Virus record (IMG/VR): IMGVR_UViG_3300013137_000013
Coordinates: 1-64,000 of that record
Length of the DNA stretch: 64,000 nt
Reading direction: 5' to 3' (one strand)
DNA from: a virus
Shown here: positions 4,865-27,275 of the stretch, one piece after another
Position numbering within the stretch: the first letter of the stretch is position 1
Layout of the letters: every line of letters starts with the position of its first letter
Position numbers and translations under genes: made by a program
Notes under the pieces: generated by a model
What the model saw: only the letters and a program-made list of their open reading frames with translations
Told to the model about the DNA's origin: nothing
Databases searched by the model: none

Positions 4865-4896
4865 TTTGGAAATTTTCTTTTTTTTTCCTATCTTTA
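4865..4896 (+). promoter_or_regulatory. Bacteroidota sigma70-type promoter (near consensus) for the glycosylation operon
   Basis: TTTG(4865)-N20-TATCTTTA(4889); one mismatch to TAnnTTTG. Confidence 0.5.
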
Positions 4897-4922: not shown

Positions 4923-5723
4923 ATGATTAATGCAACAATTTTTACTTTTGACCGTTCAGCCCAACTTCATCTCTTATTGGAGTCTATTAAAAAAAACGCA
5001 AATAATATTTTTAACATCAATGTCCTGTATAAAAGTTCAAATGAAGAATTTAAAAGAGGATATGATTTGTTAAAGGAAAGGTTCCCATATATAAATTGGG
5101 TGGAAGAAACAAATTTTAAAGAACAAACTTTAAAATTAATAGAAACAGATTTAGAACATACATGTTTTTTTACCGATGATGACATTATATATAATAGTAT
5201 AAGCGAAAGTGATATTGTAGAATGCTTAAAAGACAACAACATTTTTTGTTTTAGTCTTAGGCTTGGAACCAACGTTAGCTATTGTTATACAATGAATTGC
5301 GATGATATTTTAATTCCAGACAAACAAGATGAAAAATTTGTGTGGTGGAATTGGACAAAAAGTTATGCAGACTTTGGTTATCCACTTTCTGTTGATGGGC
5401 ATGTATTTAGAACCAAAGAAATTAAAAAACTTATTAGAGCTGTTAATTTCACAAATCCTAATACTTTAGAAGGAAACTTACAAGTTTTCGAAAACTTTCC
5501 AAAAGAAACTATGGTGGCCTATAAAATAAGTGTCTTGGTAAACTCTCCCAATAATATAGTGCAAAATGTTTATCACAACAGAAAAGCAGAGAAGTATTCA
5601 TTTACCACAAAAGAACTAAATGATAAATATTTAGCCAATGAAATAATTGACCTCAATTCAATAGATTTTTCGAATATTAGAGGTTGTCATCAAGAATTAG
5701 AATTTAAGTTTAAAAAAATATAA
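4923..5723 (+). CDS. GT-A fold glycosyltransferase-like protein
   Basis: N-term IFTFDRSAQLHLLLESI, FFTDDD DxD-like motif; first gene of the GT operon. Confidence 0.65.
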   Translation: MINATIFTFDRSAQLHLLLESIKKNANNIFNINVLYKSSNEEFKRGYDLLKERFPYINWVEETNFKEQTLKLIETDLEHTCFFTDDDIIYNSISESDIVECLKDNNIFCFSLRLGTNVSYCYTMNCDDILIPDKQDEKFVWWNWTKSYADFGYPLSVDGHVFRTKEIKKLIRAVNFTNPNTLEGNLQVFENFPKETMVAYKISVLVNSPNNIVQNVYHNRKAEKYSFTTKELNDKYLANEIIDLNSIDFSNIRGCHQELEFKFKKI

Positions 5724-5724
5724 T

Positions 5725-7716
5725 ATGAATCAAGTAATGCCTCCATTTTTTGTTCCACCTGGCATTCCATCAGTGGAGTATGATAAAAACCCAATTAAAA
5801 TAATAGTCCCATTTTATAATGCAGCCGCTTATATTGAAAGAAGCATGTTATCTGCATTAACACAAAAATATGAAAATTTTAAAATAATTTTCATTGATGA
5901 TGCGTCAACTGATGGCTCCTGGGAAAAATTGCCACATGATGACCCCAGGGCTATTTGTATAAGAAATGAAACTAACGTGACTGCATTACCAAACATTCAT
6001 AGGGCAATAATGGAATATTGTGACCCAAATGACATTGTCGTTCTTTTGGACGGTGACGATTGGCTTCCCAATAATAAAGTTTTGAAATATATCAATGAAT
6101 ACTATTGTCAAAATGATTGTTGGATTATGTATGGTCAGGCCACATGGAGTACTGGGCAAAAAGGTTGTGCTTCAGAATACACCAAGGAAGAATTTGACCA
6201 CTTGAGAATGGCACCATTTAGAGTTTCTCATATTAGAACATTTAGGACTTGGTTATATCATAAAATAAAAGAACAAGACCCAGAATTTTCCTGTATGAAA
6301 GATAAAAGTGGGAACTGGTATAGAATGACATATGATGTTGCAATTATGTTTCCTATTATGGAAATGGCTGGATTTGATAAAATAAAATATAATGACAAAC
6401 CTCTTTATATTTATAACTTTGAGAATCCCAGAAGCGACCACAGAGTCAACCAGCAACTACAGTGGGATATTCATAAAGAAATTGCAAATAAAATACCTTT
6501 TAAAAAAATAGAAAGCATGCTTAAGGAAAACATTTTTAAAAATTACAAAAACAAATATTTTGTTGAAACTGGAAGTCATAATGGAGATGGAATTCAAAAG
6601 GCAATTGAAGCTGGATTTGAAAACATCATCTCAATAGAATTGTCTGACAAATATTTTGATAGATGTGTTCAAAGATTTAAGGATAATAAAAACGTTACAA
6701 TCATTAAAGGAGATTCTGCCTTAGTTTTAAATGACGTTATAAAAGACATTAATTGTAGTATTACCTTTTGGTTAGATGGTCATTATTCTTGTGGCGATAC
6801 AGCATGTGGAGCATATAGAATTCCACTTATTCAAGAACTTGAACAAATAAAAAAACATAAAATAAAAAATCATACAATTCTTATTGATGATATGAGATGC
6901 TGGAAAGAACCCAACGAGGTTCATGGGTTTTATGAAAAAGACATATTTGATAAAATAAAAGAATTTGATACAAAATATAACTTTTCTTTTGTGGATGGCT
7001 CAGAAAAAGATGATATTTTAGTATGCAAACCCAAATATAAAATTGGCTTATTGGTTATTGCAACTGGGAAGTATGATAAATTTGTTCCACCACTTTTAAA
7101 ATCAATGAAAGAACACTTTTTGAAAAATCAAGACGTGACCATGTTTGTATTTTCAGATAAAGAAATTCCTACACAGGATGGCCTAAAAGTAATACAGCAA
7201 GAGCATGAAGGTTGGCCAAATGCAACACTTAAAAGATACCATATATTTTCAAAAAACAAAGATATTTTATCTCAAATGGATTATTTGTTTTATTGTGATG
7301 CCGACATGTTGTTCACAGCAGATGTCGGAGATGAAGTTTTGGGAGATTTAGTTGCAACAATACACCCAGGCTTCTTTGACCAGGGACGTAATAGTTATAC
7401 CTATGAAGGCAGAAAAGAGTCTACAGCTTATATTGCCCTAAATGAAGGGAAAAAATATTATGCTGGTGGATTTAATGGTGGTACATCAAGTAAATTTCTT
7501 GAAATGTCCGAACAAATTAAAAACAACGTAGACATAGATTTTTCAAACAACATTATTGCCATATGGCACGATGAAAGTCACCTAAACAGATATTTGGTAA
7601 ATAATGAACCAACTGTTGCATTATCACCTTCTTATTGCTATCCAGAGTCATGGAACATTCCTTTTGAAAAAAGATTATTGGCCTTGGACAAAAATCATTC
7701 AGAAATAAGGCAATGA
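5725..7716 (+). CDS. three-domain fusion: GT2 + SAM methyltransferase-like + GT6 (ABO/alpha-1,3-Gal(NAc) transferase family)
   Basis: GT2: IIVPFYN, IDDASTDGS, LDGDDW. From internal Met at 6517: FVETGS..GDG, FWLDGH, ILIDD. GT6 from ~7039: IATGKY, WP..TLKRY, CDADM, YYAGGFNGG, WHDESHLNRY, LSPSYCYPE. Confidence 0.9.
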   Translation: MNQVMPPFFVPPGIPSVEYDKNPIKIIVPFYNAAAYIERSMLSALTQKYENFKIIFIDDASTDGSWEKLPHDDPRAICIRNETNVTALPNIHRAIMEYCDPNDIVVLLDGDDWLPNNKVLKYINEYYCQNDCWIMYGQATWSTGQKGCASEYTKEEFDHLRMAPFRVSHIRTFRTWLYHKIKEQDPEFSCMKDKSGNWYRMTYDVAIMFPIMEMAGFDKIKYNDKPLYIYNFENPRSDHRVNQQLQWDIHKEIANKIPFKKIESMLKENIFKNYKNKYFVETGSHNGDGIQKAIEAGFENIISIELSDKYFDRCVQRFKDNKNVTIIKGDSALVLNDVIKDINCSITFWLDGHYSCGDTACGAYRIPLIQELEQIKKHKIKNHTILIDDMRCWKEPNEVHGFYEKDIFDKIKEFDTKYNFSFVDGSEKDDILVCKPKYKIGLLVIATGKYDKFVPPLLKSMKEHFLKNQDVTMFVFSDKEIPTQDGLKVIQQEHEGWPNATLKRYHIFSKNKDILSQMDYLFYCDADMLFTADVGDEVLGDLVATIHPGFFDQGRNSYTYEGRKESTAYIALNEGKKYYAGGFNGGTSSKFLEMSEQIKNNVDIDFSNNIIAIWHDESHLNRYLVNNEPTVALSPSYCYPESWNIPFEKRLLALDKNHSEIRQ

Positions 7717-8588
7717 AAAAAATAAAATTATTTTCTTCTTATTGCTCGGATGAGCAAATATATAATAACATAGTAGGTTCTTGGGGAAAAGGAAATACCT
7801 CATATAAGGACTTTGTTTTCACAGTTAATGATGATTACACGCATGCAGTACTATTCAATACGGCTATGCATAATAAATCATTAAACCCCAAAAACGTTAT
7901 TGGTTTTTCTCATGAACCCAGGAAAATATTGGGAATAGATAATGATAAAAATTATATAAATTTTGTGGCAAACAACGTTTCTGCTTATTATATAAGTAAT
8001 AGAGACAATTTACCTCCCAATTTTATAGAAGGAAATACTTTTATTTGTCCTTCAGAATTTAAAGAAAGTGAAAATAAATCATATTCTCATGAAAACAGAA
8101 TGAGTATGATATTGTCAATGAAGATGTATATGCCAGGGCACACAATGAGGCATAGAATTTTAAAAGAAATTTTAAAAACAGATTTAGATATTCATTTTTT
8201 TGGAAATGGTGTTGATGAAGTATATAATGATGAAAGAGTAAAAAAGTTTGATTGGAATATTTTTAACATTCCTTATGAAAACTACAAATATCAAATTGTC
8301 GTAGAAAACATAATAGACCGAAATTGGATTTCTGAAAAACTAACAAATTGTATTATTAAAGAAACAATACCAATTTATTATGGGTCAGAAAAGGCCATTA
8401 AGGAATATTATCCAGATAATTCAATTATAATATTAAATGATAATTTAAAAGAAAATGTTGCTAAAATAATTGATTTGTATAACAAAACAGAGAATGGGTT
8501 AACAACTTCTTTTGCAAAAAACAAACTTTATTCAGAAAATAATCTTTTAGAATTTATTTATTTAAAATTTAAAGATGTAGCAATATGA
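7713..8588 (+). CDS. GT10-like (alpha-1,3/4-fucosyltransferase fold) glycosyltransferase
   Basis: YKYQIVVEN...NWISEKL...IPIYYG matches the GT10 C-terminal motif; HEP motif in the N-terminal half. Confidence 0.75.
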   Translation: MKKIKLFSSYCSDEQIYNNIVGSWGKGNTSYKDFVFTVNDDYTHAVLFNTAMHNKSLNPKNVIGFSHEPRKILGIDNDKNYINFVANNVSAYYISNRDNLPPNFIEGNTFICPSEFKESENKSYSHENRMSMILSMKMYMPGHTMRHRILKEILKTDLDIHFFGNGVDEVYNDERVKKFDWNIFNIPYENYKYQIVVENIIDRNWISEKLTNCIIKETIPIYYGSEKAIKEYYPDNSIIILNDNLKENVAKIIDLYNKTENGLTTSFAKNKLYSENNLLEFIYLKFKDVAI

Positions 8589-9250
8589 TAGGAGTAATTT
8601 TTTTTCATAAAAACATATTTAAAATCTATCAGGAACGATGGATTAGAAAATCAATGGAATCCATGATACATCAAAAGAAAGTTGATTACAAAGTAGTTTA
8701 TTATGAACTAAACTATGAAGGGAATGGTTTGTCCTTGTTTAAACATTTTGGATTTGAAACAAATGAAAAAACTGATTATTTTTTTATAAATCAAGAAATG
8801 AAAAATCATGTAGAAGCCATGAATTTTATTATTTCAAAAGCATTCCAAGATGGTTGCAAATATGTTTTTAACACAAACTTGGATGATTATTACAGAACTG
8901 ATAGGTTGAAGTTACAACTAGAATTATTGGACGCTGGCGCTGATATTGTATCTTCAGATATGTGTTATATTGATGAAAACGATAAAAGATTTTTCGAAAA
9001 ATATTTAAATCAATTTGACACAAAAGAAAAAATAATTAATGCTTTCAATGGTGGAGATAATGTAATAGCACACCCATGTGTAGGATATTCAAGAAAATTT
9101 TGGGATAACAATAAGTACTTGGATGAAATTCCTATGGAAGATTTTAAGTTATGGAAAAGAACCATTGGTGATTACGACTTTAAAATACACAAAGATGTGC
9201 TTTTGTTTTATAGGATTCATAATTCACAAATAACAAAGAGTTTAAGATAA
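8585..9250 (+). CDS. GT2-like glycosyltransferase
   Basis: NLDDY...DRLKLQ, IAHP, EDFKLW, FYRIH motifs. Confidence 0.75.
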   Translation: MIGVIFFHKNIFKIYQERWIRKSMESMIHQKKVDYKVVYYELNYEGNGLSLFKHFGFETNEKTDYFFINQEMKNHVEAMNFIISKAFQDGCKYVFNTNLDDYYRTDRLKLQLELLDAGADIVSSDMCYIDENDKRFFEKYLNQFDTKEKIINAFNGGDNVIAHPCVGYSRKFWDNNKYLDEIPMEDFKLWKRTIGDYDFKIHKDVLLFYRIHNSQITKSLR

Positions 9251-9942
9251 TGGATTCGCAAATAAAAATACCAAAAGTTTCTATACTTTTGGCAACTTAT
9301 AATGGAGAGAAGTTTATCAAAAAGTCAATTGATTCAGTGTTGTCTCAAACATTTAAGAAATTCGAACTTTTAATAGGTTTTAATGGAACTACGGATGACA
9401 GCAAAGATATAGTAAACTCCTATAATGATGAAAGAATTAGAGTTTTTGATTATGGTGACGATAAGGGTAAATCTAAAACTTTAAATAAACTTTTAAAAGA
9501 AGCAAGAGCCGACTGGTTGGCAATTCAAGATGACGATGATATGTGGATGGGCAACAAATTAGAAGAGCAAATTTTATTCTGTAAAGATTTTGACATTATA
9601 GGTTCACAAATAAGATACGTAGACGAAAATGATGCATTGACGGGAACTATACTATCATTAGCAAAAGACCATAACGACATACTTTTTAGGGCACTTAATG
9701 GTGATAACCATATTGCAAACACTTCTGCTGTGTTTAAAAAAGATAAAACAGTACAGGTTGGCGGCTGGGATGAGAGTATAATCGGGGTTGAAGATTTTGA
9801 TTTTTGGCTAAAGATGATAAAAGTTGCTGATTGTAAAGTTACAAACCTTGACAATATACTTGTACATCACAGAGTACATTCCAACAGTAACTTTAATACC
9901 AAAGTTTGGAATGTAGATGAAATTTTAAAAAAATATAAATAA
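9250..9942 (+). CDS. GT2 glycosyltransferase
   Basis: PKVSILLATYNGEKFI, IQDDDD, KLEEQ, EDFDFWL, HRVH. Confidence 0.92.
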   Translation: MDSQIKIPKVSILLATYNGEKFIKKSIDSVLSQTFKKFELLIGFNGTTDDSKDIVNSYNDERIRVFDYGDDKGKSKTLNKLLKEARADWLAIQDDDDMWMGNKLEEQILFCKDFDIIGSQIRYVDENDALTGTILSLAKDHNDILFRALNGDNHIANTSAVFKKDKTVQVGGWDESIIGVEDFDFWLKMIKVADCKVTNLDNILVHHRVHSNSNFNTKVWNVDEILKKYK

Positions 9943-10580
9943 TGTTAATAGATTTAAAATATTTGTGTGAAAAGTACCAATTTATTCCCAAGGGAATAAT
10001 TCATATTGGTGCACACTTAGGAGAAGAACATGTCATTTACTCCACGCTTGAAATAAAAGAAGTATTGTGGATTGAGGCGAATAAAAGCATCTTTCAAAAT
10101 TTATGTTCCAAACTATCCCACATATCAACATATAAGTTTTTTAACTATCTTGTTTCAGATGTGGACGACAAAGAATATAAATTTTTTATCACAAACAACG
10201 GGGAATCGTCTTCATTGCTTGAATTAGAAGAACATTTAAAAGAACATCCTCAAATTTTTGTTTCCGATGTTGTCGAAATGAAATCTAAAACCGTTGATTC
10301 TATAATTCAAGTAAACAAAGTTGAATCTAGCAAATACAATTTTTTGAATTTAGATATTCAGGGGGCAGAATTGTTGGCACTAAAAGGCGCTGTTGATTTG
10401 TTGAAAAATATTGACTATGTTTATTCTGAAGTGAATATAAAACATCTTTATAAAGATTGTGCATTAATGGACGAAATGGATTCTTTTCTTAAAGAACATG
10501 GATTTGAAAGGGCTGAAGAAAAAATATTAAGTCACGGTTGGGGAGATGCATTTTATATTAAAAATAAATTAAACAATTAA
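9942..10580 (+). CDS. FkbM-family methyltransferase
   Basis: IIHIGAHLGEE, WIEAN, SSSLLE, LNLDIQGAELLALKG, WGDAFY. Confidence 0.9.
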   Translation: MLIDLKYLCEKYQFIPKGIIHIGAHLGEEHVIYSTLEIKEVLWIEANKSIFQNLCSKLSHISTYKFFNYLVSDVDDKEYKFFITNNGESSSLLELEEHLKEHPQIFVSDVVEMKSKTVDSIIQVNKVESSKYNFLNLDIQGAELLALKGAVDLLKNIDYVYSEVNIKHLYKDCALMDEMDSFLKEHGFERAEEKILSHGWGDAFYIKNKLNN

Positions 10581-10583
10581 AAT

Positions 10584-11102
10584 ATGCCAGGGAATTTAGA
10601 CGCTTTCAAAGAAAGTGGGTACAAAAAGTTTTTTGTTGAAACTGGTTGTTATCTGGGAGATGGAATATCAAGCGCATTGACAGCGGGGTATGATAATATA
10701 ATTTCAATAGAAATTGCAGAAGAATTTAAAAAAAATTGTGAAGAAAAGTTCAAACAAAATAAAAACGTAAATGTCGTATTGGGCGACTCATGTGAGATTT
10801 TATTTGATGTAATAAAAAACATAAATGAACCAATTACGTTTTGGTTAGATGGACACTTTTCTGGAGGAAACACTGGATTTGGCAAGTACGAATTTCCCCT
10901 AATACAAGAGTTAAAGCAAATAGAAATGCATCCAATAAAAACCCACACCATTATGATTGATGATATGAGGCTGTTTGGCGATAAAAAATATGGGTTTGAT
11001 AAAAATATGATTATAGAAACCATTTTACAAATCAACAAAGATTATAAAATATCTTACAAAGACGGTTGTGAAAAAAATGACATCTTAATTGCTTCAGTAT
11101 GA
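10584..11102 (+). CDS. SAM-dependent methyltransferase-like protein
   Basis: FVETGCYLGDG, ISIEI, GDS, FWLDGH, IMIDDMR; paralog of the middle domain of 5725..7716. Confidence 0.75.
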   Translation: MPGNLDAFKESGYKKFFVETGCYLGDGISSALTAGYDNIISIEIAEEFKKNCEEKFKQNKNVNVVLGDSCEILFDVIKNINEPITFWLDGHFSGGNTGFGKYEFPLIQELKQIEMHPIKTHTIMIDDMRLFGDKKYGFDKNMIIETILQINKDYKISYKDGCEKNDILIASV

Positions 11103-11895
11103 TAAACATTTTTTCTTCATATGACCAAAGTGGACCAAAGAAAGTAAAAGACAACTTGAAATTGGGACTTGAATTGTGCGAAATAAAGTTTGCAGAAAAC
11201 TGTTTTACTTATGAAAATAGTATATTTTTATCCGACAAGCCAGAGATGTATAACTCAAATAATTTAGATAAAACTATCGTAGGACCCAATGTGTGGCCTT
11301 TTCAAAACGAGTGGGTTTTAAAGCAAAATTATAAATGTTATATAGTTCCATCTGCCTGGGTAAAAAACATGCTCATTAGCAAAACGTCCATGTCCAAAGA
11401 CAAGATTCAAATATGGCCAGTGGGGATTAATACAGAACTTTTTTGTGACATGTCAAAAGAAGAAAGCAATCAGAACTAAAAACCGTGACAGATTTGCTTA
11501 AATCTAAGAATCAATCTTTTGAAATAATTGAATATAGCAATTATAGAGAAGAAGATATGATTTTAAAAGCAAAAATAAGTAAATATTGTTTTGTAATTAA
11601 TGGAACAGAAAGTCAAGGAATCGCATTAGAAGAGTTAATGAGTTGTAATGTTCCACTATTTGTTTGGGACGTTAATTCCTGGAATGACATTGGAGAACAA
11701 TATAAGTCCCCAGCAACAAGCGTCCCTTATTGGTCAAACACCTGTGGGGAAAAATTTTTAAACGAAGAAGAATTAAATATAAAATTTGATGAATTTTTAA
11801 AAAATATTGATTCTTACAATCCAAGAAATTATATTTTAGAAAACTTAAACTTAAAAAAGCAAGCCCTTGAATTAATTAAAATTTTTAAACAATAA
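11099..11895 (+). pseudogene. GT-B (GT4-like) glycosyltransferase split into two ORFs by a frameshift
   Basis: 11099..11479 (VPSAWV, WPVGINTELF) and 11485..11895 (ESQGIALEELMSCNVP) read as the two halves of one GT-B; frame change near 11453-11465. Confidence 0.7.
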
Positions 11896-11897
11896 AT

Positions 11898-12443
11898 ATG
11901 GCACACCAAGAACAAAAAGATTATTTTTTGGAAATAAAAAATAAATTTCCAGAGTATTTTAAAAACAAAAAAGTTTTAGATATTGGTTCCTTAGACATAA
12001 ATGGAAACAATAGACACTTATTCGAAAATTGTGAATATACAGGACTTGATGTGGCCGAAGGAAAAAACGTTGATGTAATTTGTTTAGCACATCAATACAA
12101 TGCTCCAGACGCAACCTTTGACGTAATTATAACTAATGATTGTTTTGAACATGATATGTTTTATAAAGAAACAATTAAAAATATTTTTAGGTTATTAAAA
12201 CCAAATGGGCTACTCCTGTTTACATGTAAAACAACTGGTTCTGGCGAGCATGGAACACTAAGGTCTGATGGAGGATTTTCATCCCCCCTCACATCAAAAA
12301 TTCCAGAGTGGGCTAACTATTATCGCAACATAATAGAGGAAGATGTAAGAGACATCCTTAATATAGAAGAATCATTTTCTACTTTTGAATTTAGTGTTTT
12401 AAACATTACTTTCGATTTGAGATTTTATGGAATAAAAAAGTAA
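11898..12443 (+). CDS. class I SAM methyltransferase (type 11-like)
   Basis: VLDIGSLDING, YTGLD, FDVII..CFEHD, LLKPNGLL. Confidence 0.88.
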   Translation: MAHQEQKDYFLEIKNKFPEYFKNKKVLDIGSLDINGNNRHLFENCEYTGLDVAEGKNVDVICLAHQYNAPDATFDVIITNDCFEHDMFYKETIKNIFRLLKPNGLLLFTCKTTGSGEHGTLRSDGGFSSPLTSKIPEWANYYRNIIEEDVRDILNIEESFSTFEFSVLNITFDLRFYGIKK

Positions 12444-12447
12444 AATC

Positions 12448-13092
12448 ATGAAAAATTTTTTAGATGAATTAGCCATAAAGTATAATACAGATAAGAGTTC
12501 GAAAAATCATAATTATACAAAAACATATGATAAATATTTGAGTCCCATAAGAGAACAAAAATTAAACATTTTAGAAATCGGAGTCCTAAATGGGGCTTCT
12601 TTAAAAATGTGGGGAGAATACTTTCCAAATTCTCAAATATATGGCCTGGACATCAGCCCAGATTGTAAAAAGCATGAAAAAGATAATATAAAAGTAATCA
12701 TAGGCAGTCAGGATGATGAAGAATTCTTGATTCAGAATATTAAATCTATCAAATTTGACCTCATTATAGATGATGGAAGTCATATATCAAGGCACCAAAT
12801 AAAAAGCTTTAATGTACTATTTGACAGCCTTAATAGTGGGTGTTATTATATTATAGAAGATGTTTGCTGTTCATACTGGAATAGTCATGAAGGTGGGTAT
12901 AAAAAACAGGGCTCTGTCATAGAATACTTTAAAGACAAAATTGATGATGTCAATTTTTACGGATTCAAAGGAGATTTGTACGATAGGAAAAGAGAGTATA
13001 TTACATCCATTAAAAAGGATTTGACATTTTTTGAAAAGACTATTAACTCAATACATTTCTATAACAGCATAATTATTATAGAAAAGATATGA
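12448..13092 (+). CDS. class I SAM methyltransferase, MycE/TylE-like sugar O-methyltransferase
   Basis: TDK...HNY, LEIGV..GASLKMW, GSQDD, IIDDGSH, YIIED. Confidence 0.8.
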   Translation: MKNFLDELAIKYNTDKSSKNHNYTKTYDKYLSPIREQKLNILEIGVLNGASLKMWGEYFPNSQIYGLDISPDCKKHEKDNIKVIIGSQDDEEFLIQNIKSIKFDLIIDDGSHISRHQIKSFNVLFDSLNSGCYYIIEDVCCSYWNSHEGGYKKQGSVIEYFKDKIDDVNFYGFKGDLYDRKREYITSIKKDLTFFEKTINSIHFYNSIIIIEKI

Positions 13093-13673
13093 TAATTTTA
13101 TTTACCAGTGCCCTTACAGAAAATCTCTTCGAACAAAGAAAAGAAGAATATATAATCTCTTTCAACACTTTGTGTTCATTTGGATATAAGAACAACATTC
13201 AAATAATAGAATGTATTAACAACTCCGAGGATAGTTTTCTTAATACTTTGACTGAAAAAGTTTTTTATACAAAACAAAATTATGCCTATAGAAACAAAGG
13301 CGTTAATGAGTTGTTAAATATTAAATTCTTTTTAGAAAACTTTAATGTTGATGATGAAGAAAAAATCGTCAAACTAACTGGAAGATATAATCTTCTCGAT
13401 AATTCATTTATTAAAGAGTTTGAAAATAGTTCTTGTGACGTACTTTATAAAAAAGATTCTGTCAACCAAGTGTTTTTTGGGTGTTTGTGTTTAAAGAAAA
13501 AAGTCCTAACAAACTTTATCAATCAATTAAACTTTAATGTTCTTGAATCAAATCTTGTATGTATAGAAAAATCTTTTGCCGACTTTATATACAAAAGTGA
13601 ATATGAACAAAAGGTGATTGAAAAAATAAATATCAGATGCAATATTAATAATGAAGATTTACACACTCTTTAA
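13089..13673 (+). CDS. hypothetical protein, probable GT-A-like glycan enzyme
   Basis: NKGVNE and IVKLTGRY motifs; last gene of the GT operon. Confidence 0.55.
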   Translation: MIILFTSALTENLFEQRKEEYIISFNTLCSFGYKNNIQIIECINNSEDSFLNTLTEKVFYTKQNYAYRNKGVNELLNIKFFLENFNVDDEEKIVKLTGRYNLLDNSFIKEFENSSCDVLYKKDSVNQVFFGCLCLKKKVLTNFINQLNFNVLESNLVCIEKSFADFIYKSEYEQKVIEKINIRCNINNEDLHTL

Positions 13674-14812
13674 ACTGGATACTTAAATATTTCTTCCTCA
13701 TAATTCTTTAAATAAATATATTTTTCATCAGCTCCAACTATCGAATTTGGTAATATTGGAATTTTACCGCCACCCCCAGGCGCATCTATAACATATTGCG
13801 GAATTGCATAACCACTGGTAAATCCCCTTAAAGACTGAATAATATTCAAACCTTCTTCTATTGTTGTTTTAAAATGTGCCGAACCAATGATGGGGTCACA
13901 TTGATATAAATAATAAGGCTTAATTCTAATTTTTAAAAGCTCATGAAACAATTTTTTTAACACTTTTGGCTCATTATTAACACCATTCAATAAAACAGTT
14001 TGACTTCCCAAAACAATTCCCACATCAGCCAATTTTGTAACGGCCACTTTTGATTCATCTGTGATTTCGTCTGGGTGCGTTGAATGAATGCTTAAGAATA
14101 GTGGATGGAATTTTTTTAAAATTGAAACAAGATTGTCTGTAATCCTTTGTGGCAAAACAAAAGGAACTTTTGTGCCAATTCTGATTATTTCTACATGAGG
14201 AATGTTTCTTATATTCTCAAGAAAATATTCTATTTTTGAATCTGAAAGAGTAAGTGGGTCTCCACCAGATATAATAACGTCCCTAACTTCTGAATGGCTT
14301 TTTATATAATCAAAAACTTTTTCATAATCCACAAATTTTTCTTTGTTTTCAATAATCCTTGAGCGTGTGCAATATCTACAATTTGCTGAACAAAAATTTG
14401 TTGCTAAAAGAAGAACTCTATCTGGGTATCTATGTACAAGACCTGGAAGGGGAGAATCTTCAATTTCAGAAAGGGGGTCTATTTCTTCTCCAAAATTTTT
14501 GTTAAGTTCTTTATCAGTGGGCACCATAGTTTTTCTAATCTCTTTACTACTGTGCACCAAACTGAGATAGTATGGGGTAATTCGCAAAGGAAGTTTTGTA
14601 CTATCAACATCTTCGGCTGCTGTAATATTTAAAAACTTTTTAATTTGAGAAATGGTTCTGATGGAATTTGACAACTGCCATTTCCAATCATTCCATTGAA
14701 TATTTGTTATTTGGGGGTAATATTTTTTTTTGAAACTTTCAACAAGACCTAAAGGGTCTTCTGCTTCTACATCTGCGACTGCTATTTCATCTGTACAATC
14801 CTTTGTTTTCAT
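13670..14812 (-). CDS. kamA: KamA-family radical SAM lysine 2,3-aminomutase
   Basis: WNDWKWQL, GLVHRYPDRVL, CSANCRYCTR (CxxxCxxC), SGGDPL, PYYLYQCD, SGYAIPQYVIDAPGGGGKIP (PLP lysine). Confidence 0.93.
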   Translation of the reverse strand: MKTKDCTDEIAVADVEAEDPLGLVESFKKKYYPQITNIQWNDWKWQLSNSIRTISQIKKFLNITAAEDVDSTKLPLRITPYYLSLVHSSKEIRKTMVPTDKELNKNFGEEIDPLSEIEDSPLPGLVHRYPDRVLLLATNFCSANCRYCTRSRIIENKEKFVDYEKVFDYIKSHSEVRDVIISGGDPLTLSDSKIEYFLENIRNIPHVEIIRIGTKVPFVLPQRITDNLVSILKKFHPLFLSIHSTHPDEITDESKVAVTKLADVGIVLGSQTVLLNGVNNEPKVLKKLFHELLKIRIKPYYLYQCDPIIGSAHFKTTIEEGLNIIQSLRGFTSGYAIPQYVIDAPGGGGKIPILPNSIVGADEKYIYLKNYEEEIFKYPV

Positions 14813-15010: not shown

Positions 15011-16615
15011 ATGATGTTAAAAAATTTAGAACAATCCGACATTGAATACATCAAGAAGACTTACGTAGACAAAGCATTAACATGGGATGAAAGAATGGGA
15101 ATTCTTATGAGTCATTTTGGTAAATCCGAAAGAACTGTAAGAAAATGGTTGTCAAAGTTAGGAATAAAAGAGAAAACAAATGGAACAGCAAGAGGCGATG
15201 TAGAATCTCCCCAATTTGAAGAAGCTAAAAAAAAGCAGTTTGACAAAACTAAAAAAAGATTCATTGTAACCTGGGCGCAAAATAATACCCCTGTTCATAA
15301 GCAATTCTTAGAAAACATTAAGGCATATGCAAAATTTTTAGATGCAGACCTTCATGTAATTGCTGGAAGATATAAAAACCCAACTTCTGTTTTTGCAGAT
15401 AAAGACTTTGATTTTTGGGTAGAAGATGTCGCTCCGTATCTTGATGCTAACCGTCACGACATTCACAAATACGTTTCAATTCTATCAGATGTTAAAATTC
15501 AGCCCACTGCCGTAAACCCAATGAGCGGTTTAGAAGGAATGAGTGGGGTTAATTCTTGTATTTTTGGCTCTCCAAAGGTACAAATGGAAGTTATAGGCGC
15601 TCTGGAGGGTTATAGGCCAAAGTTGATGCTTACCACTGGTGCGGTCACTTTAAAGAACTATACGGACTCTAAAGCGGGAAAAAAGGGAGAATTTCATCAC
15701 ATTCTTGGATTTGTAGTAGTAGAAATTAAAGATGAAGAAAAATTCTTCGTCCGTCAAGTTACAGCTACTACAGATGGAGAATTTACAGACCTTTACTATT
15801 CTGTTAAAAATCAAGAAGTAAAAGAAATTGATGGAATAGAAGCTATTGTTTTGGGAGATATTCACCTGGGGCAAGTAGATGAAACTGTTATGAGTTCAAC
15901 AATTGACCTTTTAAACAAACTCAAGCCAGACAATACCATAATTCATGATTTATTTGATGGCTATTCTATAAGCCATCATGACATGAAAGACCCAATAAAA
16001 ATGTATAGGAAAAGTGTAGAAGGCCGAGATTCTCTTAAAAAAGAAGTTGACTATATGCTTACCTGGTTAGAAGAAATGAGGAAATATCATCTTGTAATTG
16101 TAAGAAGTAATCACGATGACTTTGTTGATAGGTGGATAATAAATACAGACTGGAAGAAAAATATTCCAAATTCAGTTGAATATATGGAATATACAAAAGC
16201 TCTACTTGAAGACAAAGCCCCCAACGGAATTATCCCTTACATTATTAACCAAAGGTTTAAAGATGTCAAAACTCTTGGTAGAATGGATTCGTTTAAAGTT
16301 AAAAAATGGGAATTGGGGGTTCACGGAGATTACGGGCAAAATGGAAGTCAGGGTTCAATTACACAATTTAGAAAATTAAATACAAAACTGGTTATTGGTC
16401 ACTCTCATACTCCAGGAAGGAAAGATGGAGTTTTGCAGGTTGGAACATCTACCAAAAAGAGACTTGGGTACAACCTTGGTGCCAGCACATGGCTAAATTC
16501 ACACGTTATTATTCACAGAGATGGAAAAGCACAACATGTAAATTTCCTTGACGGAGAATATACAACATTTAAAATGGAAAATTTTCAGAAAAAGACTGCA
16601 AAACATAAAAAATAA
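15011..16615 (+). CDS. T5 A1-like protein (metallophosphoesterase-fold nuclease) with N-terminal HTH-like segment
   Basis: FIVTWAQNNTPVH...F, LGDIH, HDLFDG, SNHD, HGD, GHSH calcineurin-like motifs; GKSERTVRKWL HTH-like. Confidence 0.75.
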   Translation: MMLKNLEQSDIEYIKKTYVDKALTWDERMGILMSHFGKSERTVRKWLSKLGIKEKTNGTARGDVESPQFEEAKKKQFDKTKKRFIVTWAQNNTPVHKQFLENIKAYAKFLDADLHVIAGRYKNPTSVFADKDFDFWVEDVAPYLDANRHDIHKYVSILSDVKIQPTAVNPMSGLEGMSGVNSCIFGSPKVQMEVIGALEGYRPKLMLTTGAVTLKNYTDSKAGKKGEFHHILGFVVVEIKDEEKFFVRQVTATTDGEFTDLYYSVKNQEVKEIDGIEAIVLGDIHLGQVDETVMSSTIDLLNKLKPDNTIIHDLFDGYSISHHDMKDPIKMYRKSVEGRDSLKKEVDYMLTWLEEMRKYHLVIVRSNHDDFVDRWIINTDWKKNIPNSVEYMEYTKALLEDKAPNGIIPYIINQRFKDVKTLGRMDSFKVKKWELGVHGDYGQNGSQGSITQFRKLNTKLVIGHSHTPGRKDGVLQVGTSTKKRLGYNLGASTWLNSHVIIHRDGKAQHVNFLDGEYTTFKMENFQKKTAKHKK

Positions 16616-18928: not shown

Positions 18929-20116
18929 ATGGAACAAGAAATGATTGATACCACGCAGATTGACCACAATGCATTAGTACAGTCTGTAATTGAAAAAGTA
19001 AGAAATAATGAATCGAAATATTATTTCTATTGCCCTCCTTTAAATGTACCCAGTGGGGGAATTGGCGTTTTAATCAAGATGGCAAGAATTATGAAAGATT
19101 CTGGCTATAACGTCAAGGTTGTTTTCGAACCAAGACAAGACCAGAGAGCATCTTTTGAAGAATCAAGAAAACAGAATAAACAGGTTGATATATTTGAAAA
19201 ATTTAATCCCCAGTGGTTGGATTTTGATTATTCAGACATTGATTTCTTCCCACTTGGAGATAAAACCATTGTTTACAATGATGGCACCAAACAAGAATGC
19301 GTTGCTTTAAATGTTAATCCAGAGGATTTCTTTATTATTCCAGAAGGATTTCCAAATATCATGAAAAAAATCATGCAGGTGGCATGTAAAAAGATTGTTT
19401 TGGCACAGAGCTGGTTTTATATTCTCAATTCTTTAAACACTGGCGAAACATGGCAGGGAATGGGTATATTTGATGTTATTTCAGTTTCCGATGCAATTAC
19501 AGAATATCTTCACACGGTTATGCCTGGACTAAAGATTAAAAACTTTTCACAAGGTATTAACAGAAAACTTTTCGCTGCTCCAGCCAAAATGTCCAACAAA
19601 TATCCAATGGTTGGATTTATGGGAAATAGGGGACAAGAAAACCAAATGAAAACATTCAACATTATTAAAACCTTCCAGGCATTTTATCCTCACTTAAGAT
19701 GGGTAAGATTTATTCAATTAAGCGGACTTTCTAAAAAAGATTTCGCAGAAAGATTGGCAAGCTGCGCATTTGTTTTATATACTGATGACATTGCTGGATT
19801 TGGAACATTACCTCTTGAATCTATGGCAAGTGGAACACACGTTGTTGGCTGGAATGCATATGGCGGAAAAGAATATGTTACCACAGAAAATGGATTTTGG
19901 ACTGTTAATGGAGATATTTTTCAAACAGCAGAAATTTTAGGTGTTGCTATTGATAAATGGTTAAACGGCGAAATGGATGTGGATGAAATTCAAGCATCTT
20001 ATGAAAAAACCCTTGAAAAATATACAGAAGAAGGGGAAAAAGAAAACTTCTTAAATATAATTAACGAATATAAAAATGAAAGAATCAATGAACTTGAAGG
20101 ACTTAAAAAACAGTAA
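18929..20116 (+). CDS. GT-B (GT4-like) glycosyltransferase
   Basis: PSGGIG, IIPEG, GFGTLPLESMASGTHVVG. Confidence 0.85.
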   Translation: MEQEMIDTTQIDHNALVQSVIEKVRNNESKYYFYCPPLNVPSGGIGVLIKMARIMKDSGYNVKVVFEPRQDQRASFEESRKQNKQVDIFEKFNPQWLDFDYSDIDFFPLGDKTIVYNDGTKQECVALNVNPEDFFIIPEGFPNIMKKIMQVACKKIVLAQSWFYILNSLNTGETWQGMGIFDVISVSDAITEYLHTVMPGLKIKNFSQGINRKLFAAPAKMSNKYPMVGFMGNRGQENQMKTFNIIKTFQAFYPHLRWVRFIQLSGLSKKDFAERLASCAFVLYTDDIAGFGTLPLESMASGTHVVGWNAYGGKEYVTTENGFWTVNGDIFQTAEILGVAIDKWLNGEMDVDEIQASYEKTLEKYTEEGEKENFLNIINEYKNERINELEGLKKQ

Positions 20117-24531: not shown

Positions 24532-25863
24532 ATGCCAAAAGACGATATTATAGCGCAACGAGCTCTTCAAAACGCTGGACAAGGAAATTACAGCTCTAAT
24601 ATTTCTAATGGGAGAGGTATATATCCTGCCATTGTTGTTCCTTATGGTACCAACGATAACTCAGAACAAAACCGCATAAGAGCAAGAATAGTAACTGTAC
24701 AAGATGATGGAAAAATACAGGGTAGAATAAATTTAAATAGTGAAGAAAATTATAATGGTTATTCTGGCAAAGATAGGGGGATAACTGATGATAATCTTGT
24801 TTTATGTATGCCTCTTCTGCCAGAGTTTTTCCACATAAGACCGCAAGTTGGAGAAATGGTTTTTGTTATTCTGGAAAATCCTACCGATAACTCCAGTGTG
24901 AGATATTGGATTGGACCTATAATTTCATCAAAATTAAAATTAAATTACCAAGGTTTTGAGGATTCTTATAAAATGTTTAACAAAACCACTTTTATATCTA
25001 GTCCCAAAACAAGCGGTTCCTTAGACCTTTCAACAACCTTTCCAGAAGACTCTGATGTTGCAATCCAGGGAAGAAAAGATGCAGATTTGATATTAAAAAA
25101 CAGAGAGGCTTTACTTATTGCTGGCAAATTTTCAGACTTTCAAAATTTTGTTATCAATACCGACTATCCTTCATATTTAAGGTTAAAACAATTTGATAGT
25201 ACTACAACAGAAGAAAAACCTACAGTAGAGCCTAAGAATATTATTCACAACATCAATGTAGGGATGGTACATGACCCTATTGGTAACAAATTTGCTGGAA
25301 CAATAATAGTAAAAGAAATAAAAAGTGATATTGAGCTAAAAAACGAAACAAACACATATATATCAAGTTCTGATACAATAAGTTGGTTAAGTACAAAAAT
25401 TACAGAAGTTAAAACAAAATATCCAAATTGGTCATTTACTTCAGAAATGGAAACATATAAAACCTATAAAAAAGATTATTATGTAGTTTCAGCGCCATCC
25501 GTCACAGACCCACCAGTCGCAACGAATAATGAAAATTTATTAAAAAAATACTCCCAAGCAACTCTTATTTCAACAAATATTAACATATACTCTCCAAGAG
25601 GCAAATTTAGAGGTAATGATGTAAAATCTTTCGAAAAGAATGATGATTTAAAATCTTTTGGGACTTTTGCAGACACACTTCATCCAGCAATATTTGGAGA
25701 TGAAACAGTCAGAGTTTTAGATTTAATTATTAGACTACTTCTTACCCACATTCACACACCAGAAATGCCTTTATTACAAACTGCAATTTCAAATGAGTTG
25801 AAAAAATATACAGTGGATGGATGGTTACAGAATCTTATATCTAACCACATCAGGATTAATTAA
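24532..25863 (+). CDS. baseplate central spike (gp5/VgrG-like OB fold)
   Basis: RIRARI...PLLP...PQVGEMVFV...YWIG OB-fold signature; C-terminal HxH (THIHTP). Confidence 0.75.
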   Translation: MPKDDIIAQRALQNAGQGNYSSNISNGRGIYPAIVVPYGTNDNSEQNRIRARIVTVQDDGKIQGRINLNSEENYNGYSGKDRGITDDNLVLCMPLLPEFFHIRPQVGEMVFVILENPTDNSSVRYWIGPIISSKLKLNYQGFEDSYKMFNKTTFISSPKTSGSLDLSTTFPEDSDVAIQGRKDADLILKNREALLIAGKFSDFQNFVINTDYPSYLRLKQFDSTTTEEKPTVEPKNIIHNINVGMVHDPIGNKFAGTIIVKEIKSDIELKNETNTYISSSDTISWLSTKITEVKTKYPNWSFTSEMETYKTYKKDYYVVSAPSVTDPPVATNNENLLKKYSQATLISTNINIYSPRGKFRGNDVKSFEKNDDLKSFGTFADTLHPAIFGDETVRVLDLIIRLLLTHIHTPEMPLLQTAISNELKKYTVDGWLQNLISNHIRIN

Positions 25864-27275
25864 AATGGCTTAATTATCTTTAGGTCTATTCTTTCTGGCA
25901 TTACCCTATTTGTTCCCATTTCATTAATCTTAAAACTAATTTGATATGTTTGATTGTGTAATAACCAAGATGCGTCTACATCAAAATAATTAGTTGTACA
26001 ATCATCTATGACAGCATGATTAACTTCAGTCCATGGAATAACTTCAACTTGATTGTTCATTATCATTCGGTACTGTAAAGAATAGGATGTGCTTGGTTTA
26101 TTTGTGCTATAATTAACTCTCAAGTCACAATATACCCTTATTTTTTCATCCTGATGAACTATCATGCCCTGTTCAATTCCATAGGTTTCAAGAACATATT
26201 CATTTATAGATGGCCTATTGGCTGTATAATAATTTTTTTGTATTTGGAATGTTTGCGATATATTTTGATTGTCATATTGACTAAAACTTACATTATTCCA
26301 AACATCCACATATTTTTCCCCAGGGGTAGCGCCAGACATCCATACGTTTACATAATATGCTCCAGTAGATAACTGAGAAGGAATAAGCCCAGAATAAACT
26401 GTAGTGTTTCCTCTTTTAATATCTACAGTCACTGCAGACAGATTTATGTTTGTAAAATTATGACCACTAAAGGTATATAAGAATAAATTTGATGGTCTAT
26501 TGTTAGAAATTTGTTTCCTATCATCTTGAATGACTTGATTGTACACAACCTCAAGAAATGGCTTAAATGCAGTATTTGTTTTTTCAGTAAAAAATGAACT
26601 TATATATCTTGTGTCTGCACTAAACAATTCATAATCTCTTCTATAAGCAATTGCAATTCCATTGTTTTCAGAACCACCACTTAACCAATCTTTTACAATA
26701 TCAGTTACATCCATATTTAAATCCTCATCTCCAATATCAAAATGCTGAGAAGTGTGATAAGTTGTAGATGCGGATGGGTCAATATATATTCCTGGTTCAT
26801 TCCAGAAAGTCAATGACGTAGCGTAATCCCAATTAGAAACCCCAGATGTCAAATAGTTTCCAGATTGTCTAACAATATAAATTTCTTTGATTAAATCATA
26901 ACCTCTGCCCTCTTCCCAATACTTATTTATTGGGAAAGCAATCAAATCGAATGAGGTGGCAACCATTTTTTTTAAAACATCATGTTCATATTCAGACTCA
27001 AGAACCAAATCTCTTGGTTTCGAATTTTTTAACTTTAATTTATAAGATGTAACCAAAGATTCATTAATTTCTTTAGTGCTGAATTTTTGCTGTAAATTAG
27101 TTAAATCAAAATAAAGTAGAAATCTGCTAACAGAATTTCTTTTGTCTGGCGCTGTATCTGTTCCTCCGCCACCATACCACAAGTCTGTTACGGTGTTTTG
27201 ACCAGAGTTTAGGTTGCTATAATAACTTCCAGCTATAGTGTTGCTTTTTGATGGATAAATTCTAAAAACTGACAT
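25860..27275 (-). CDS. putative virion protein with DNRLRE-like beta-sandwich domain
   Basis: SRFLLYFDL, MDVTDIVKDW, NNGIAI, PFLEVVY; TATTTATA motif at 27290. Confidence 0.6.
   Translation of the reverse strand: MSVFRIYPSKSNTIAGSYYSNLNSGQNTVTDLWYGGGGTDTAPDKRNSVSRFLLYFDLTNLQQKFSTKEINESLVTSYKLKLKNSKPRDLVLESEYEHDVLKKMVATSFDLIAFPINKYWEEGRGYDLIKEIYIVRQSGNYLTSGVSNWDYATSLTFWNEPGIYIDPSASTTYHTSQHFDIGDEDLNMDVTDIVKDWLSGGSENNGIAIAYRRDYELFSADTRYISSFFTEKTNTAFKPFLEVVYNQVIQDDRKQISNNRPSNLFLYTFSGHNFTNINLSAVTVDIKRGNTTVYSGLIPSQLSTGAYYVNVWMSGATPGEKYVDVWNNVSFSQYDNQNISQTFQIQKNYYTANRPSINEYVLETYGIEQGMIVHQDEKIRVYCDLRVNYSTNKPSTSYSLQYRMIMNNQVEVIPWTEVNHAVIDDCTTNYFDVDASWLLHNQTYQISFKINEMGTNRVMPERIDLKIIKPF

Follow-up and report, generated by a model that had tools for sequence, protein, structure and literature searches.

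A soluble, hypervariable glycan assembly island in a freshwater jumbo phage

Introduction

Big aquatic phages repeatedly carry large glycan islands with many enzymes, and what these islands act on has been a question since the genome of P-SSM2. Here, we describe one such island in a 64,000-nt stretch of viral DNA (the window), which forms the start of a single 76,245-bp IMG/VR virus record (IMGVR_UViG_3300013137_000013). Between positions 4923 and 13673, the window carries a tight row of genes for glycosyltransferases (GTs) and S-adenosylmethionine (SAM)-dependent methyltransferases (MTs), which, judging from their family assignments, should assemble, within the infected cell, a methylated sugar chain that resembles blood group A. 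While multi-enzyme phage glycan islands as such are already known, this one is new in its compact and clear architecture, consisting of an initiator pair followed by a swappable cassette.

Described glycan systems of phages and viruses

Jumbo phages encode what Iyer et al. called 'capsular polysaccharide modification systems', which comprise at least eight GT families and are polymorphic between related viruses, and which were proposed to diversify the outer polysaccharides of the host against superinfection (PMC7824862). Papers on cyanophages make the same proposal, or propose DNA glucosylation (PMC12801897). In P-SSM2, the annotated run consists of epimerases, GT2, GT1, a methyltransferase and GT6. 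The cluster in the window resembles such 'LPS' (lipopolysaccharide) or capsular polysaccharide clusters, also found in S-SCSM1 and S-SCSM2R, in being a dense, same-strand and polymorphic set of soluble GTs from multiple families and O-methyltransferases in a large lytic phage. Three of its genes have P-SSM2 orthologues in the same local order: ORF8/9 (open reading frames 8 and 9; PSSM2_266), the methyltransferase ORF6 (PSSM2_267; 39%) and the GT6 domain (PSSM2_268; 47%). It differs in belonging to a freshwater lineage of ~300-370 kb with a probable Bacteroidota host, in having no nucleotide-sugar enzymes (which its relatives do have, as in the genome G001, and which also occur in 37 of the 80 homologous loci described below), in the fusion of GT2, MT and GT6 into one protein, and in having a Pfam-less ORF1 and a GT2 as a conserved anchor pair.

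Outside the phages, the chlorella virus PBCV-1 uses A064R (638 aa, GT-GT-MT) and A061L to make the methylated end of its capsid N-glycan (PMC9614988). The likeness to ORF2 of the window is one of architecture: both are soluble viral proteins of ~640-660 aa with two GTs and a SAM MT, helped by a separate MT, and A064R builds its methylated glycan in the cytoplasm without endoplasmic reticulum/Golgi or lipid-carrier machinery, as would be the case here. The domain order differs (GT-GT-MT versus GT2-MT-GT6), and for PBCV-1 the acceptor, the major capsid protein, is proven.

To our knowledge, the O-glycosylation of mycobacteriophages is the only proven phage precedent for the decoration of virions. 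In Che8, Corndog and Myrna, phage-encoded cytoplasmic GTs decorate the phages' own capsid and tail-tube proteins, according to the passages on Freeman et al. 2023 in PMC12619734 and PMC13445384. Those systems, compared here by description, consist of 2-4 genes, whereas at least 11 are found here, in an island type of up to about 25-28 genes. In the jumbo phage XacN1, a proteomic study found glycoproteins (PMC5852040).

Composition of the cluster

Twelve co-directional, overlapping ORFs lie on the + strand between 4923 and 13673, with 4-base overlaps at junctions 7713/7716, 8585/8588, 11099/11102 and 13089/13092, and 1-base overlaps at 9250 and 9942. Since ORF8 and ORF9 form one GT-B gene that is broken by a frameshift, the cluster amounts to 11 genes. 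Functions were assigned by Pfam, NCBIfam and PDB searches, together with two structure predictions (AlphaFold2 models of ORF1 and ORF12, compared by Foldseek):

ORF1, 4923..5723, + strand: GT-A glycosyltransferase without a Pfam match; conserved gene that opens the island
ORF2, 5725..7716, + strand: fusion of a GT2 domain (~1-270), a putative FkbM-like 'FVETG' methyltransferase domain (~270-435) and a GT6 domain (437-662)
ORF3, 7713..8588, + strand: GT10-like (fucosyltransferase-type) protein; PF00852 at 1.2e-8, C-terminal type
ORF4, 8585..9250, + strand: divergent GT2-like protein; weak PF00535 match (26 bits, cut-off 23.3)
ORF5, 9250..9942, + strand: GT2; PF00535 at 2.6e-23
ORF6, 9942..10580, + strand: FkbM-family methyltransferase; PF05050 at 1.4e-15, TIGR01444 at 1.5e-13
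ORF7, 10584..11102, + strand: stand-alone 'FVETG' domain, paralogue of the middle domain of ORF2
ORF8 (11099-11479) and ORF9 (11485-11895), 11099..11895, + strand: two halves of one small GT-B
ORF10, 11898..12443, + strand: class I SAM methyltransferase (type 23/11); PF13489 at 3.5e-11, PF08241 at 4.4e-7
ORF11, 12448..13092, + strand: MycE/TylE-like deoxysugar O-methyltransferase; PDB 3ssm (MycE) at 1.3e-26
ORF12, 13089..13673, + strand: member of a mostly viral, Pfam-less family with a GT-A-like/sugar-nucleotidyltransferase fold

In total, these ORFs hold about eight GT-type domains (the novel GT-A, three GT2, GT6, the GT10-like domain, the split GT-B and the GT-A-like fold) and five MT domains (FkbM, two FkbM-like 'FVETG', one type-11/23 and one MycE-like). 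Membrane segments are absent from all 12 ORFs, in which no 19-residue window rises above a Kyte-Doolittle value of 1.08, and Pfam searches found no nucleotide-sugar epimerases or dehydratases among them. The original prediction, made from the DNA letters alone, is borne out in its gene number, overlaps, domain counts and lack of membrane anchors. Every ORF matches a GT or an MT fold, the point on which the idea of a soluble glycan assembly line had been staked beforehand, and this supports the idea.

PDB sequence and profile searches with ORF1, ORF12 and the FVETG domain gave no meaningful match; the folds of ORF1 and ORF12 were therefore taken from structure prediction. ORF1 is modelled with a predicted local distance difference test (pLDDT) score of 92 as a GT-A fold, with generic GT-A matches in Foldseek (GnT-I at 3.8e-8, TarP at 5.5e-7, also POMGnT1 and SpsA) and a DDD motif at 85-87 that is invariant among 26 homologues. 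The ORF12 model (pLDDT 94) has a nucleotide-diphospho-sugar transferase fold, matching KfiA (1.3e-6), KdsB, IspD and GT8, and the protein is without a DXD motif. Its family counts 332 homologues, some of which are fused behind GT-D-fold glycosyltransferases or Methyltransf_24.

ORF2 matches Pfam GT2 at its N-terminus (8e-19) and GT6 at its C-terminus (1e-50). The junction between its GT2 and MT parts is spanned by independent lake-sample contigs without any difference. Because such contigs reproduce both this fusion and the frameshift between ORF8 and ORF9, neither is a one-off assembly error. A tblastn search of a phage collection with ORF2 listed 84 weak matches, one of them in a Mycobacterium phage. 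Among the remaining GTs, ORF3 matches only fucosyltransferases in the PDB (7yro at 1e-5, H. pylori FucT and FUT9), ORF4 is 41% identical to an ORF of the 642-kb phage LR756502 that is flanked by GT2 and GT6, and ORF5 is closest to the NCBIfam models TuaG and EpsE, far under the cut-offs of both.

ORF7 is 51% identical to residues 271-440 of ORF2, and these two FVETG domains have zero direct Pfam, NCBIfam or PDB sequence matches. A profile comparison (hhalign) with the FkbM family gave a probability of 92% (E 5e-7, 102 columns), including the ETG.y.GdG SAM motif. This likeness at the profile level gives moderate support to both being class I SAM methyltransferases, which we consider probable. 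For ORF11, the second PDB match is 8ia9, a demethylmacrocin O-methyltransferase (6e-20).

A GT6 domain of the phage and marine clade

The GT6 domain (residues 437-662 of ORF2) matches PF03414 with 172 bits (cut-off 25) over profile positions 74-312 of 313, and the NCBIfam model Gltr_6 with 233 bits, slightly below its strict cut-off of 250. In the PDB, it aligns over its full length with the bacterial enzyme BoGT6a (8e-57) and with human GTA (2e-41), so that the likeness covers the whole catalytic domain, with HPGF and HDES kept. Its DAD motif aligns with DVD of GTA and NAN of BoGT6a, and WHDESHLN, which holds the catalytic Glu, is identical to GTA. At the donor-selecting position, it has AGG, as in the GalNAc-transferase BoGT6a, a motif that suggests UDP-GalNAc as the donor.

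A minimal, DXD-bearing clade of phage and marine GT6 proteins has been described around P-SSM2 (PMC3516806), and by its sequence features the domain of ORF2 belongs to it. BoGT6a is a characterised bacterial GT6 that was reported to make the A antigen at the cell surface (PMC3516806). It has NXN, is metal-independent and carries a C-terminal membrane-binding domain; the phage domain, in contrast, has DXD, lacks the membrane-binding tail and follows a GT2 and a methyltransferase within one fused protein.

A GT-B gene in two pieces

ORF8 and ORF9 occupy different frames. Reading them as two independent genes was rejected, as in each of two cyanophage-type records a single gene accounts for both: the 287-aa PSSM2_266 of P-SSM2, labelled hypothetical protein in its record, is matched by ORF8 at 38% and by ORF9 at 46%, and in Marine virus AG-345-F15 the two match one frame. 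The pair has a weak Glyco_transf_4 match (21.6 bits, under the cut-off of 28.5). The split is real in the population, because an independent lake-sample contig spans 11376-12175 with zero differences to the window. The broken gene may be a pseudogene, may be recoded, or may yield an enzyme that functions in two pieces, as the glycosyltransferase Alg13/Alg14 does.

A hypervariable island of a jumbo phage lineage

The window has a G+C content of about 30%, and its contig encodes a baseplate wedge protein, primase, an Mre11-Rad50-like fusion, an SNF2-type helicase, endolysin, PhoH and a T5 A1-like protein. No terminal repeat was found on the 76,245-bp contig. Relatives of the baseplate protein (81-84% identity) sit on viral contigs that measure 372 kb (100% complete), 291 kb (91% complete) and 187 kb, and the contig is therefore a piece, about a quarter, of the genome of a freshwater or lake-water jumbo phage in the range of roughly 300-370 kb. 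It is not a whole genome; the CheckV completeness estimate is 24%. The cluster had no megablast match among 50,697 phage records. Its sequence was found again in several lake-water metagenomes.

The host is probably a member of the Bacteroidota, judging from the AT-rich DNA, from the T5 A1-like protein, which is nearest to Maribacter and Flavobacterium phages, and from the cellular relatives of the GT2 domain (Mucilaginibacter, Chitinophaga and Paraflavitalea). Maribacter phage Panino, the best isolate match of the A1-like gene, was rejected as a relative, being not syntenic and having no comparable island. No tyrosine integrase was found in any record examined (G000-G004), which makes classical lysogenic serotype conversion unlikely; the phage is probably strictly lytic.

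Comparison with four relatives (G001-G004) shows how the island is built. The left flank is syntenic in all four. ORF1 is 71-75% identical (G001, G002 and G004) and the GT2 part of ORF2 68-80% identical, the latter being a free-standing gene of ~266 aa in the relatives. Behind this GT2, the relatives show only weak, family-level matches to ORF3-ORF12, and their replacement sugar gene sets span 19-22 kb, up to a right border that is the same in all of them:

T5 A1-like gene, 15011-16615, + strand: phrog_1745 at 1e-155, right border of the island in all relatives

Because four relatives keep both flanks and the two leading enzymes but have the remainder replaced, the locus is one strain's version of a hypervariable glycan island, in which a conserved start is followed by a swappable rest. 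The fusion in ORF2 is placed exactly where the conserved part meets the swappable part. The A1-like protein itself is 47-50% identical between relatives, far below its neighbours.

The sister islands of the 372-kb (G001) and 291-kb (G002) phages occupy the same slot between the ORF1-GT2 pair and the A1-like gene and share the soluble design, but hold almost entirely different genes behind this pair, with GDP-sugar and aminosugar genes in one and nonulosonate/Maf-like sets in the other. The G001 island (~22 kb, 25 ORFs) holds GDP-mannose dehydratase, epimerases, DegT aminotransferases, three FkbM, GT2, GT10, GT11, GT17 and a B12-radical SAM enzyme. That of G002 (~19 kb) includes a Maf/MptE-like domain, which belongs to a protein of ~255 aa in sister islands that matches PF01973 with 46-47 bits summed, above the cut-off:

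Maf/MptE-like protein, L140 (G002:200827-201399) and L141/L142 (G003:5924-6469): inside the sister islands

The island in the window, for its part, has GT6, GT10 and five MTs and no sugar-nucleotide genes.

Lake contigs also match the window and then diverge inside the island, for example after 11465 (runs X3 and X4; 11455-11470 and elsewhere), which suggests that lake samples hold co-occurring strains that differ in island content. Contig joints with sides of 20-31 letters were disregarded as likely cross-matches from related strains.

The ORF1 family and the absence of export genes

ORF1 has 934 homologues in a large protein collection, most of them from viral contigs and the best 120 at 49% identity or more, and none has a Pfam domain. 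In IMG/VR, 217 ORF1-homologue loci were confirmed, the longest contig reaching 676 kb. For the best 80 of these 217, we counted neighbours within 10 kb: all recurrent families lie on the same strand as the ORF1 homologue, with GT2 in 54/80 loci, SDR epimerases/dehydratases in 37/80 and FkbM in 35/80, followed by GT4, GT10, GT8, GT6, GT29 sialyltransferase-like, GT47-like and cytidylyltransferase proteins. Eukaryote-type GTs thus occur in homologous viral islands, namely a GT29 sialyltransferase-like protein (6e-20; L123:13887-14519) and GT47/RXYLT1-like proteins, with GT17 and GT11 in G001.

Bacterial O-antigen and capsule loci usually encode an initiating transferase, a flippase and a polymerase or ligase beside their GTs, as in Wzx/Wzy-dependent pathways. 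None was found for the phage island: 0/1828 ORFs within 10 kb of the 80 ORF1 homologues have four or more hydrophobic segments, and WbaP-type or WecA-type initiating transferases, Wzx and Wzy/WaaL were not found in G000-G004 (PF02397, PF00953, PF01943 and PF04932; controls matched), which include relatives that are 100% and 91% complete. The original prediction had seen no flippase or polymerase in the window; this holds and extends to near-complete genomes and to the 80 loci.

These findings bear on the possibility that the island remodels the host envelope. The enzymes would then act at the inner membrane face on an undecaprenyl-pyrophosphate (Und-PP)-linked intermediate of the O-antigen, capsule or general O-glycan of the Bacteroidota host, which the host flippase and ligase or oligosaccharyltransferase would display, resulting in a superinfection block or in altered grazing or recognition. 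Peripheral GTs of O-antigen and capsule pathways use lipid-linked intermediates and likewise lack transmembrane segments, so solubility is compatible with this scenario. The literature reads the homologous P-SSM2-type clusters in the same way and describes them as polymorphic among related phages (PMC7824862; PMC12801897). The scenario is also favoured by the three genes that are orthologous to and syntenic with gp266 (ORF8/9), gp267 (ORF6) and gp268 (GT6) of P-SSM2, by the surface A antigen made by the bacterial BoGT6a (PMC3516806), and by the closest named GT2 models being envelope polysaccharide enzymes. It is weakened by the lack of an initiating transferase, flippase, polymerase or ligase in the near-complete relatives and of any polytopic ORF in the 80 loci, and by the probably strictly lytic lifestyle, no integrase having been found. 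Furthermore, the conservation of ORF1 (at least 49% identity in the best 120 of 934 homologues, from many habitats) is ill-suited to variable host-glycan acceptors, though a universal acceptor such as Und-PP-GlcNAc would reconcile the two. Overall, we regard envelope remodelling as rather unlikely, while taking it seriously.

Virion proteins as the candidate acceptor

We rank virion proteins first as the acceptor, on circumstantial grounds and with a probability of roughly 0.4. The original prediction had arrived at a cytoplasmic acceptor, most plausibly the phage's own structural proteins, from the lack of membrane segments and of a flippase. The virion proposal stays plausible and in first place, but that derivation fails, because the peripheral GTs of lipid-linked pathways are free of transmembrane segments as well.

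In the proposed mechanism, about eight soluble GT domains would add sugars sequentially after infection, using host-made nucleotide sugars, and five SAM methyltransferase domains would O-methylate the added sugars. The chain would be begun by ORF1 (GT-A) and the GT2 domain of ORF2, on an acceptor that all relatives share, and its outer structure, which would differ from strain to strain, would depend on the swappable enzymes downstream. We envisage as the product a branched, methylated oligosaccharide with GalNAc/Gal (GT6, by A-antigen-type alpha-1,3 transfer), probably also containing fucose or another 6-deoxyhexose (GT10-like and MycE-like enzymes). Virion proteins would receive this glycan in the cytoplasm, either ahead of assembly or in the course of it, resulting in particles with a variable sugar coat. 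Sugar identities, order of action and acceptor are our inferences, while the folds, the solubility, the lack of export genes and the architecture are observed.

Circumstantial points in favour are the export-free design in 80 loci, the apparently lytic lifestyle and the combination of a conserved start with a variable rest, in which an initiator pair conserved about as strongly as structural proteins is followed by swappable elongators. Several features hint at a protein acceptor. Maf proteins carry out the cytoplasmic glycosylation of flagellin, and a Maf/MptE-like domain lies in the islands of G002 and G003. Homologues of ORF12 are fused to GT-D-fold enzymes, another such hint. A third comes from a GT outside the cluster:

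GT4-type GT-B (core GT-B), 18929..20116, + strand: PF00534, 27.9 bits (cut-off 26.4); downstream of the cluster

No other protein of the stretch is as well conserved as this core GT-B, which shows 84-87% identity in G001, G002 and G004; tblastn with it against the 50,697 phage records gave zero matches. It lies directly upstream of a conserved, unannotated gene block that reaches the baseplate wedge gene, a position that hints at a protein acceptor, and it may be the lineage's acceptor-specific enzyme. Finally, the motif [ST][GA]xT is enriched in the fibre/baseplate-like ORFs 25860-27275, 34876-37278, 39871-41574, 44115-46214 and 47467-48639, and absent from replication proteins. Against composition-preserving shuffles, 13 copies were observed versus 2.4 expected in 44115-46214, and 8 versus 1.2 in 39871-41574; its presence in fibre-like proteins can be taken as a further hint. 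PHROGs and Pfam gave names to few of the neighbouring structural ORFs, and no major capsid protein was identified by them.

Several points weigh against virion proteins as the target. The motif [ST][GA]xT was chosen post hoc and may reflect fibre repeats rather than a sequon. Soluble GTs without membrane segments typify the Und-PP-linked assembly of O-antigen and capsule just as much, and the phage could borrow the initiating enzyme, flippase and ligase of its host. Homologous P-SSM2-type clusters have been read as host polysaccharide modification (PMC7824862, PMC12801897), and the nearest named cellular GT2 models are the envelope enzymes TuaG, EpsE and WcaA, all far below their cut-offs. The ORF1-family islands of other lineages adjoin replication genes, not structural genes. 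In addition, no sense-strand copy of TATTTATA, a motif enriched in the window and described further below, was found before the glycan operon. Support for any acceptor, this one included, is circumstantial.

Phage DNA as a possible acceptor

The core GT-B and the TarP match of ORF1 also lead to another candidate acceptor, the phage DNA. In that case, ORF1 and/or the core GT-B (18929-20116) would glycosylate a hydroxylated pyrimidine, and the variable enzymes would extend or methylate the glycan, thereby evading restriction. Some phages have GTs akin to LPS and teichoic-acid enzymes that attach up to trisaccharides to 5-hydroxymethylcytosine (bioRxiv 10.1101/2023.12.21.572611); the GT-A forms among them match TarP best in the PDB (10.1101/2023.12.21.572611). 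TarP is also among the matches of ORF1 (5.5e-7), behind GnT-I, and poly-arabinosylated cytosines occur in RB69 and DLP3 (PMC13326640). The relatives, moreover, encode a thymidylate synthase (TS) homologue with two insertions:

TS homologue, L139:1444-2697 (G001, about 276 kb), with homologues in G002, G003 and G005

This protein of 417 aa carries its insertions at ~239-282 and ~350-379 and keeps the catalytic Cys and the uracil-specifying Asn. From its sequence it is probably a canonical TS, a dUMP-modifying variant being a possible alternative; the island is ~75 kb away, and the protein is most similar to the canonical L. casei TS (1.6e-73), which together with the retained Asn speaks against a role in base modification. 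In the DNA-glycosylation clusters of T4 type and in the C5-MT/TET/ThyA-linked ones of Pyle et al., a base-hydroxylating or hydroxymethylating enzyme lies near the GTs; none was found here. PF00303, PF12851 and PF00145 were unmatched in the 76-kb contig, a TET/JBP domain was found neither in the contig nor in the relatives, and a C5 DNA methyltransferase was not found in the 76-kb contig (the relatives were not searched for one). None of the five MTs is a DNA methyltransferase, all being of sugar or small-molecule type, and eight GT domains including glycan-acceptor types (GT6, GT10, GT11 and GT29) plus five MTs far exceed any known DNA glycan. Hence, we consider DNA hypermodification very unlikely.

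The island edge and a possible free product

On the distal side of the island, an oppositely oriented gene follows:

Lysine-2,3-aminomutase-like radical SAM gene, 13670..14812, - strand: distal island edge; PF12544 at 1.7e-17, PF04055 at 8e-12

It converges on the last island gene. G004 and a second contig have it at the corresponding place, with 80% identity; it was not found in the island regions of G001 and G002. Because it is present in those two contigs and not found in the island regions of these two relatives, it behaves as cargo and is possibly part of the island's movable content.

Its presence at the island edge in three contigs agrees with a further scenario, in which the cluster makes a free or lipid-bound product, such as a methylated oligosaccharide, a glycolipid or a glycosylated small molecule, that would serve as a decoy, osmolyte or metabolite and to which the neighbouring, beta-lysine-forming aminomutase might contribute. 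MTs of the MycE/TylE and FkbM types stem from the tailoring of natural-product sugars (Pfam PF05050), and Iyer et al. propose secondary-metabolite roles for a second cyanophage cluster (PMC7824862). The cluster, however, was found to hold no gene for the biosynthesis of an aglycone or scaffold (polyketide synthase, nonribosomal peptide synthetase or lipid), blood-group-type GTs extend glycan chains, and conserved initiators with swappable elongators better fit an epitope that is displayed and selected. A free product therefore seems improbable to us.

Expression signals

The intergenic region before ORF1 is conserved in four relatives, which share the element TTTG-N20-TATCTTTA:

Candidate promoter of the operon, 4865..4896, + strand: TTTG-N20-TATCTTTA, resembling the Bacteroidota -33/-7 promoter type

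This promoter call is weak, because the motif class is not significantly enriched in AT-rich DNA: the Bacteroidota-type pattern TTTG-N17-21-TAnnTTTG has 6 strict matches versus 3.7 expected, and was kept as a weak hint only. The motif TATTTATA, on the other hand, has 30 copies in the window versus 11.6 expected, a number that no shuffle reached. It often lies on the sense strand shortly before structural and lysis genes (e.g. at 3700-, 22049+, 27362+, 44092+ and 60444+), which fits an earlier idea that it marks late promoters.

Significance

At ~9 kb and without sugar-nucleotide genes, the locus is compact enough to be reconstituted, which, along with its clear architecture, is its particular value among the glycan islands of large phages. 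Should the host surface be the target, surface remodelling by strictly lytic phages would be documented. Our more general proposal, which we put forward tentatively, is that this lake jumbo-phage clade and other large aquatic phages with ORF1-family islands coat their particles with strain-specific, methylated, histo-blood-group-like glycans, made in the cytoplasm by an initiator pair and a swappable cassette and giving rise to particle 'serotypes'. If virion proteins are indeed the target, particles would carry variable blood-group-like glycans, with consequences for how phage and host recognise each other, for grazing and adhesion, and for views on where the GT6 family came from.

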